Source: Escherichia coli
GTDB taxonomy: Bacteria > Pseudomonadota > Gammaproteobacteria > Enterobacterales > Enterobacteriaceae
Strand: one strand, 5' to 3'
Assembly (NCBI RefSeq): GCF_044324875.1
Contig: NZ_CP172185.1
DNA: 64,000 nucleotides
The notes below the pieces were generated by a model that saw only the letters and a program-made list of their open reading frames with translations, searched no databases and was not told the origin of the DNA. This document shows, piece by piece, positions 19,058 to 19,449 of the stretch. Each line of letters opens with the position of its first letter. The first letter of the stretch is position 1. The position numbers were made by a program, and so were the translations under genes.

Positions 19058-19184
19058 AGGGGCTTCATCCGAATTGCGCCATTGTTGCAATGGCGGTTTT
19101 TATTGTTTTTCACGACAGTAACCGCACCTACACTGTCATGACATTGCTCACCCCTATGTGTAACAAATAACCACACTGTGAATG

Positions 19185-19198
19185 TTGTCTTTAATCAA
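19185..19198 (-). promoter_or_regulatory. Candidate FNR site of the nrfA promoter
   Basis: Reverse strand reads TTGATtaaaGACAA, an FNR-like half-site arrangement upstream of nrfA. Confidence 0.4.
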
Positions 19199-19449
19199 TT
19201 GTAAGTGCATGTAAAATACCACTTTAGAGTTAGTCAGTATCTTCCTCTTTTTCAACAGCATGCATAACTGCATGTTCCTCAAAGAATTAATCAACTTTTG
19301 TTGCTGACCTTCAAAAATTACCCTGCCGTTTATTTGCACAATTCTACTTTTGCGTGATCTGTCGCCCAAATACTAAACAAAACTGTCAATACCCCTACAT
19401 TTAACGCTTATGCCACATATTATTAACATCCTACAAGGAGAACAAAAGC

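Follow-up and report, generated by a model that had tools for sequence, protein, structure and literature searches.

The DNA between positions 19058 and 19449 is almost certainly the nrfA-acs intergenic control region of E. coli, with the 14-mer originally flagged there being the single site for the oxygen sensor FNR in the nrf promoter, pnrf. Positions are those of the window, by which we mean the entire 64,000-nucleotide stretch of E. coli DNA that was analysed. That this FNR site is real is supported by its register with the mapped transcription start, by its conservation across genera and by published experiments. The nrfA/acs system is already known in depth, and is among the best-dissected promoter regions in bacteria. 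The two genes and the FNR site occupy the following positions.

17621..19057, minus strand: nrfA coding sequence (cytochrome c552 nitrite reductase), from the ORF list and RefSeq annotation, with its ATG at 19057..19055
19450..21408, plus strand: acs coding sequence (acetyl-CoA synthetase), from the ORF list and RefSeq annotation
19185..19198, minus strand: FNR site, TTGATTAAAGACAA, with its centre at 19191.5, which corresponds to -41.5 of pnrf and -34.5 of the divergent promoter acsP1

Identity of the locus and of its FNR site

A megablast search with 501 bases surrounding the FNR site returned matches in 5413 of 5426 complete E. coli genomes, and among the matches listed all were annotated with nrfA and acs as the flanking genes. 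In the E. coli genome search, four matching places for this chromosomal region sit on records that are classed as plasmids. When aligned with K-12 MG1655, the window carries three differences in 421 aligned bases, and none of these falls between -87 and -1 of pnrf, where the two sequences are the same. The gap between the genes has a GC content of 38.3%, compared to 50.7% for the whole window and 53-60% for the flanking genes.

The preliminary description, which was made from the sequence and a list of open reading frames, proposed that nrfA and acs diverge from an AT-rich gap of 359 bp. Both the divergence, as evident from the ORF list and the RefSeq annotation, and the AT-richness are confirmed, whereas the length has to be corrected to 392 bp (19058..19449). 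The left boundary of 19091 had been set by an in-frame TTG at 19090, and the real nrfA start is the ATG at 19057, 33 nt away. RefSeq/PGAP annotation uses the equivalent of ATG 19057 in K-12 and in the closest strain, 7/2, and places the acs start at 19450; furthermore, the nrfA start and N-terminus are kept in nine other Enterobacterales. The nucleotides from 19058 to 19150, most of which had been included in the initial gap, are the nrfA 5′ leader rather than promoter DNA.

Positions 19185 to 19198 read TTGTCTTTAATCAA on the plus strand and TTGATTAAAGACAA on the minus strand, so that both the sequence and the position initially given for the reverse-strand 14-mer are accurate. The site comprises a perfect half, TTGAT, a 4-bp spacer, TAAA, and an imperfect half, GACAA (consensus ATCAA), and thus agrees with the consensus at 8 of 10 positions. 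It had been called an FNR half-site arrangement. The assignment to FNR holds and the half-site label does not, since the sequence is a full, asymmetric 14-bp dyad.

Extensive experimental data are available for the K-12 version of this promoter. A single FNR site centred at -41.5 has been reported for pnrf, and promoter activity drops approximately 100-fold in strains carrying an fnr deletion (Godfrey et al., 2017, PMC5434802, Table 1). The same study presents gel shifts with FNR D154A and in vitro transcription on the K-12 sequence, wherein FNR activates pnrf and fully represses acsP1 (Godfrey et al., 2017, PMC5434802). The acs/nrfA region is also among the in vivo targets of FNR identified by ChIP-chip. 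FNR binding and FNR-dependent transcription would be expected for the window as well, to the extent that these published results can be carried over from a K-12 sequence that is identical from -87 to -1.

Promoter register and neighbouring regulator sites

The published K-12 numbering was placed on the window by using four sequence anchors taken from PMC5434802. In K-12 pnrf, +1 is a C and +4 is a G, and the p+102A substitution turns an AGG Arg codon into AGA inside a GGA motif (Godfrey et al., 2017, PMC5434802). Codon 3 of nrfA is AGG at 19051..19049, and its third base, 19049, is +102. Only position 19150 brings together the C at +1, the G at +4 and the codon base at +102, and therefore the pnrf start was assigned to 19150. 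The features of the two divergent transcription units that follow from this register, or that were placed by other published coordinates or by sequence matches, are as follows.

19150, minus strand: pnrf +1, from the anchors of Godfrey et al. (2017) on the alignment of K-12 and window; T in the window, C in K-12
19157..19165, minus strand: pnrf extended -10 element, TGtTACACA, with the hexamer TACACA at -12..-7 (19157..19162) and TG at -15/-14
19217..19232, minus strand: NarL/NarP 7-2-7 site, TAACTCT-AA-AGTGGTA, centred at -74.5 of pnrf and overlapping the -10 and +1 of acsP1
19266..19276, minus strand: candidate NsrR half-site, AACATGCAGTT, centred near -121 of pnrf
19212..19226, plus strand: acsP1, a weak divergent promoter, with a probable -10 of TAAAAT at 19212..19217 and +1 at 19226
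19300..19315, plus strand: probable distal CRP site (CRP II), GTTGC-N6-TCAAA, centred at -122.5 of acsP2; weak, 6 of 10
19353..19368, plus strand: proximal CRP site (CRP I), CGTGA-TCTGTC-GCCCA, centred at -69.5 of acsP2
19418..19430, plus strand: acsP2, the main acs promoter, with -10 TATTAT at 19418..19423 and +1 at C 19430

With +1 at 19150, the centre of the FNR dyad falls exactly at -41.5 and that of the NarL/NarP dyad exactly at -74.5. A comparison with published positions for pnrf and acsP2 had been recommended at the outset, and it finds these two sites and the proximal CRP site at -69.5 of acsP2 all in exact register. The mapping also predicts the location of a natural variant, because the O157:H7 pnrf differs from that of K-12 at -7 only (Godfrey et al., 2017, PMC5434802). 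A search with a 61-mer that carries the predicted A-to-T change at -7 gave 296 records of 100% identity, headed by O157:H7 strains. The -10 element of EHEC is printed as TATACT by Godfrey et al. (2017), versus TACACT in the 296 genome records, and the printed form is probably a typographical slip.

The assignment of the extended -10 element agrees with the published one, given that the legend to Fig. 2 of Godfrey et al. (2017, PMC5434802) lines the pnrf -10 up with TGnTATAAT and that the p14C mutation breaks the extended -10. The TTGTTAC portion of this element is kept across genera. In the literature, a repressing Fis I site is described as overlapping the pnrf -10. A sigma-70 scan of 18900..19600 found no promoter, which is expected for promoters that depend on activators, and this result is therefore uninformative. 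The hexamer GATACT (19236..19241) was considered as an alternative -10, in view of the printed TATACT, and rejected, since the nrfA ATG would then lie at about +173, outside of the -209..+131 fragment. It is also ruled out by the O157:H7 allele, which falls at -7 of TACACA.

Upstream of the FNR site, 19217..19232 consists of two inverted heptamers separated by 2 bp and varies very little among Escherichia, Citrobacter and Enterobacter. Heptamers bound by NarL and NarP follow a TACYYMT-like consensus. Published work places a NarL/NarP site at -74.5 of pnrf, and describes a repressing IHF I site, located between the FNR and NarL/P sites, that is displaced by NarL/NarP (Godfrey et al., 2017, PMC5434802).

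Still further upstream, AACATGCAGTT was matched to the 11-mer consensus of NsrR, AAGATGCATTT. The AACATGC-GTTAT motif of this candidate half-site recurs in the upstream regions of three Citrobacter species, and NsrR is described in the literature as repressing pnrf from an upstream site.

On the acs side, the published acsP1 and acsP2 sequences each end at the start site, 224 and 20 nt upstream of the acs ATG, respectively (Olvera et al., 2009, PMC2759082, Table 1), and on the window they map to 19226 and 19430. The -10 hexamer of acsP1 is our own prediction. The pnrf and acsP1 starts are arranged back-to-back, 76 bp apart, such that acsP1 +1 corresponds to -76 of pnrf. This position agrees with the report that the pnrf97 fragment (-87..+10) contains acsP1 (Godfrey et al., 2017, PMC5434802). 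Moreover, the FNR dyad at -34.5 of acsP1 covers -41..-28 of this promoter, and thereby accounts for its published repression.

The start of acsP2 was identified by 5′-RACE as the C at -20 (Olvera et al., 2009, PMC2759082). Two activating CRP sites, the proximal one at -69.5, are curated for acsP2, together with three Fis and three IHF sites that repress (RegulonDB v8, PMC3531196). In the half of the gap nearer to acs, no sequence resembles a CRP site better than CRP I, which sits exactly at -69.5 with a weak score of 7 of 10. A scan of the window with the CRP consensus gave 207 matches versus 218 expected, which is no better than chance, and it was therefore used only to inspect the published -69.5 position. 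The probable CRP II lies at -122.5 of acsP2, reportedly the position of the distal site (Beatty et al., 2003). FNR acts on pnrf as an activator and on acsP1 as a repressor, while acsP2, 204 bp beyond acsP1, is CRP-dependent without FNR action. Elsewhere in the window, a perfect palindromic match to the CRP consensus, TGTGATATAGTTCACA, is found at 31659..31674, and K-12 carries this 16-mer too, in its divergent yjcB/pdeC intergenic region (L123, 873..888).

Two strain-specific bases of the window lie in the promoter regions. The T at pnrf +1, where K-12 has C, is uncommon, as evident by the presence of the exact 61-mer in 126 of 5412 E. coli records (2.3%). Substitutions at +1 and +4, a set that does not include T at +1, modestly change the strength of pnrf (Godfrey et al., 2017, PMC5434802). 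The second base is a T in place of C at 19386, which is -44 of acsP2, in the interval that separates CRP I from the core promoter. This allele is rare, its exact 61-mer occurring in 28 of 5407 records, and carriers include LF82 and NRG 857C. No complete E. coli genome combines both T alleles within one 501-mer.

The window therefore has close counterparts among known systems, each of which departs from it in a specific way. It shares with K-12 pnrf/acsP1 the FNR site at -41.5, the NarL/NarP 7-2-7 site at -74.5, the TGtTACACA element, the acsP1 core, the 93-nt leader and the GGA of codon 3, and differs by the T at +1. With the class III promoter acsP2 of E. coli it has in common the C start 20 nt before the ATG, the TATTAT hexamer and the proximal CRP site at -69.5, and it differs by the T at -44. 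The pnrf of EHEC O157:H7 has the same architecture and the same FNR site, but its T at -7 (TACACT) makes it partly independent of FNR and Fis (Godfrey et al., 2017, PMC5434802), whereas the window has TACACA. Because the window keeps the K-12-type A at -7, its pnrf is expected to be strictly FNR-dependent. E. coli pnir is a class II FNR promoter with its site at -41.5 that is held by IHF and Fis and released by upstream NarL/NarP. This is the same working mode as that of pnrf, but pnir belongs to another locus and operon, has its NarL/NarP site at another position and is not known to have an overlapping divergent promoter that is repressed by the same FNR dimer.

Taken from the K-12 literature and the positions mapped here, the region would be expected to operate in the following manner. 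Under anaerobiosis, an FNR dimer bound to TTGATTAAAGACAA at -41.5 would recruit RNA polymerase, in the class II mode, to the weak extended -10 element of pnrf, which appears to have no usable -35, and the transcript would run leftwards from 19150 through the 93-nt leader into nrfA. The bound FNR would simultaneously cover -41..-28 of the back-to-back acsP1 promoter and shut it off. In the presence of nitrite or nitrate, NarL/NarP at -74.5 would displace the repressing IHF, and in rich medium Fis positioned over the -10 would repress pnrf and override activation. NsrR would repress from further upstream, and CsrA would act on the leader and start-codon region. Most acs transcription would originate from acsP2, where CRP at -69.5 and at the distal site would activate and Fis and IHF would antagonise. 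Control by several regulators had been anticipated in the preliminary description, and is in agreement with the literature when mapped on the window (FNR, NarL, NarP, IHF, Fis, NsrR and CsrA for nrf; CRP, Fis and IHF for acsP2).

Conservation of the FNR site and competing explanations

The nrfA loci of many genera were retrieved by using a degenerate pattern for the Nrf haem motif. In seven of nine other Enterobacterales, namely E. albertii, three Citrobacter species, Enterobacter, Serratia oryzae and Pectobacterium, the sequence TTGAT-N4-(A/G)ACAA is located 125-140 nt upstream of the nrfA ATG. Edwardsiella carries a similar FNR box much further upstream, approximately 240 nt from the nrfA ATG, and the nrfA upstream region of Pluralibacter has no FNR box with two or fewer mismatches. 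In Escherichia, Citrobacter and Enterobacter, hardly any base changes across a block that starts with the NarL/P site, includes the FNR box and the extended -10 and reaches into the leader; the sequence upstream of this block diverges.

FNR boxes with at most one mismatch are also present 110-176 nt upstream of nrfA in Aeromonas, Budvicia and six of eight Vibrio/Aliivibrio, which fits the control of nrf by FNR and NarP that was predicted by comparative genomics (PMC1805755). By the same threshold of one mismatch and within 400 nt, none of seven Shewanella nrfA upstream regions (L009, L034, L053, L054, L065, L098 and L110) contains an FNR box. CRP is named as the regulator of nitrate and nitrite respiration there in the title of a published paper.

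The conserved block could in principle owe its conservation to coding constraint, because a small ORF is annotated across it in K-12.

19154..19210, minus strand: ytcB (b4821), 18 aa, MHLQLIKDNIHSVVICYT, from the K-12 RefSeq annotation and identical in the window

This ORF runs across the FNR box and the core promoter of pnrf, stops 4 nt short of pnrf +1 and is intact in both the window and E. albertii, as would be anticipated if a protein were being preserved rather than a protein-binding DNA site. However, its ATG is replaced by ATA in two of three Citrobacter species in which the DNA is almost identical, and the loss of the start codon while the surrounding DNA is conserved indicates that conservation derives from the regulatory DNA and not from the ORF. 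Serratia, Pectobacterium, Vibrio and Aeromonas keep the FNR dyad without the ORF, and the conserved block extends beyond either end of the ORF, reaching into the NarL/P site and the leader. Expression of ytcB would additionally require transcription to begin upstream of pnrf, the only nrf promoter that has been described. A full-text search for the name ytcB returned unrelated papers only, mostly concerning a Bacillus subtilis gene of the same name, and the preprint of Stringer et al. (2021) and its supplement contain no match to the ytcB name, coordinate or peptide. Given these observations, we consider coding constraint on ytcB to be a very improbable source of the conservation.

Equally hard to credit is the proposal that the 14-mer serves mainly as a site for another protein, such as IHF or CRP, with FNR being secondary. 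The sequence AATCAA, on the plus strand at the edge of the dyad (19193..19198), does match the IHF core WATCAA, and the literature places IHF I between the FNR and NarL/P sites; yet IHF and FNR occupancy are not mutually exclusive, and pnrf is reported to be wholly FNR-dependent. The case for CRP would be that the FNR and CRP consensus sequences are related, and that the other FNR-like match in the gap is centred at the expected distal CRP site. This second match, at 19301..19314 with its centre at 19307.5, indeed falls at -122.5 of acsP2, the expected distal CRP position. The half-site of the 14-mer, however, is TTGAT, which is of the FNR type, and not TGTGA, which is of the CRP type. In addition, the CRP scan yields only matches with three mismatches here (e.g. 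19177..19192), and such matches are no commoner than chance across the window.

The weakest explanation, that the 14-mer resembles an FNR site by chance in AT-rich DNA and has no regulatory role, is effectively refuted and has next to no probability left. Against it stand the exact -41.5 register with the mapped start, the retention of the dyad at much the same spacing from the nrfA ATG in genera with diverged flanks, and published work on the identical K-12 sequence that reports both FNR dependence and an FNR ChIP signal. Its appeal derives from the motif statistics. The pattern TTGATNNNNATCAA, when two or fewer mismatches are allowed, has 51 matches in the window versus 34.5 expected, and about 0.2 chance matches are expected per 392 bp, an expectation that AT-rich DNA raises; two are found in the nrfA-acs gap. 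Because the motif score does not discriminate, the reality of the FNR site of pnrf rests on position, conservation and published experiments. The best FNR-like match of the whole window is TTTGATAAAAATCACA at 59712..59727, whose inner 14-mer has one mismatch to the FNR consensus and which is also one mismatch from the CRP consensus. It presumably lies near genes of the mal regulon, if the window is collinear with K-12.

The nrfA leader and implications for nrf regulation

The RNA transcribed from pnrf begins with a leader that carries two predicted hairpins.

19058..19150, minus strand: nrfA 5′ leader, 93 nt, with GGA of the ribosome-binding region at 19068..19070
19110..19141, minus strand: hairpin HP1, with an 11-bp stem formed by TCATGACAGTG...TACTGTCGTGA, from RNA folding
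19077..19095, minus strand: hairpin HP2, CGCCATTG-CAA-CAATGGCG, from a terminator scan and RNA folding, adjoining the ribosome-binding site on its 5′ side

The GGA upstream of the nrfA ATG is invariant in eight species, and the GGA published as a CsrA target is that of nrfA codon 3 (19049..19051) (Godfrey et al., 2017, PMC5434802). Escherichia, Citrobacter, Enterobacter and Pectobacterium all retain the HP1 stem, for the most part by one-sided G-U/G-C and U-A/U-G changes. Such changes, being compatible with G-U pairing, are meaningful only if it is the sense RNA that folds. At the position of HP2, each of the ten Enterobacterales leaders examined has a hairpin, whose sequence is unrelated in the more distant genera.

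Folding of the leader with HP1 and HP2 gives z = -1.5. For eight leaders, RNAalifold and pair counting found 88.5% of cells to be paired, and covariation among these same leaders was not significant compared to shuffles; hence, we do not claim the leader RNA structure as proven. An Rfam scan of 18800..19700 at E <= 1 produced only a chance match to a eukaryotic lncRNA model, well below the gathering score, and the leader thus corresponds to no known RNA family.

HP2 can also be read on the opposite strand. On the plus strand, 19077..19111 comprises CGCCATTGTTGCAATGGCG followed by the T-run GTTTTTATTGTTTTTC, and scores as an intrinsic terminator. Upstream of this element, the plus strand runs antisense to nrfA and carries no annotated gene. 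Pluralibacter and Edwardsiella lack the T-run.

The role of the conserved nrf leader was called unclear by Godfrey et al. (2017, PMC5434802). We tentatively entertain the idea that the 93-nt leader is a conserved cis-regulatory RNA, and judge this to be possible and rather unlikely. If true, the leader hairpins might govern how nrfA is translated or how stable its mRNA is, perhaps by exposing the flanking GGA motifs to CsrA. Alternatively, HP2 on the plus strand might end antisense transcripts before they reach the shared promoter region.

For scans that proceed from sequence only, this locus serves as a positive control, in that the FNR site was correctly picked from the sequence. It also carries three cautions: an ORF-based boundary put the nrfA start 33 nt wrong, the motif score alone cannot tell the real FNR site here from chance matches, and one neighbouring 'FNR-like' match is centred at the expected position of a CRP site. 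For work on nrf regulation, the analysis offers several small leads, which are the T at pnrf +1, the T at -44 of acsP2 and the conserved leader hairpins.
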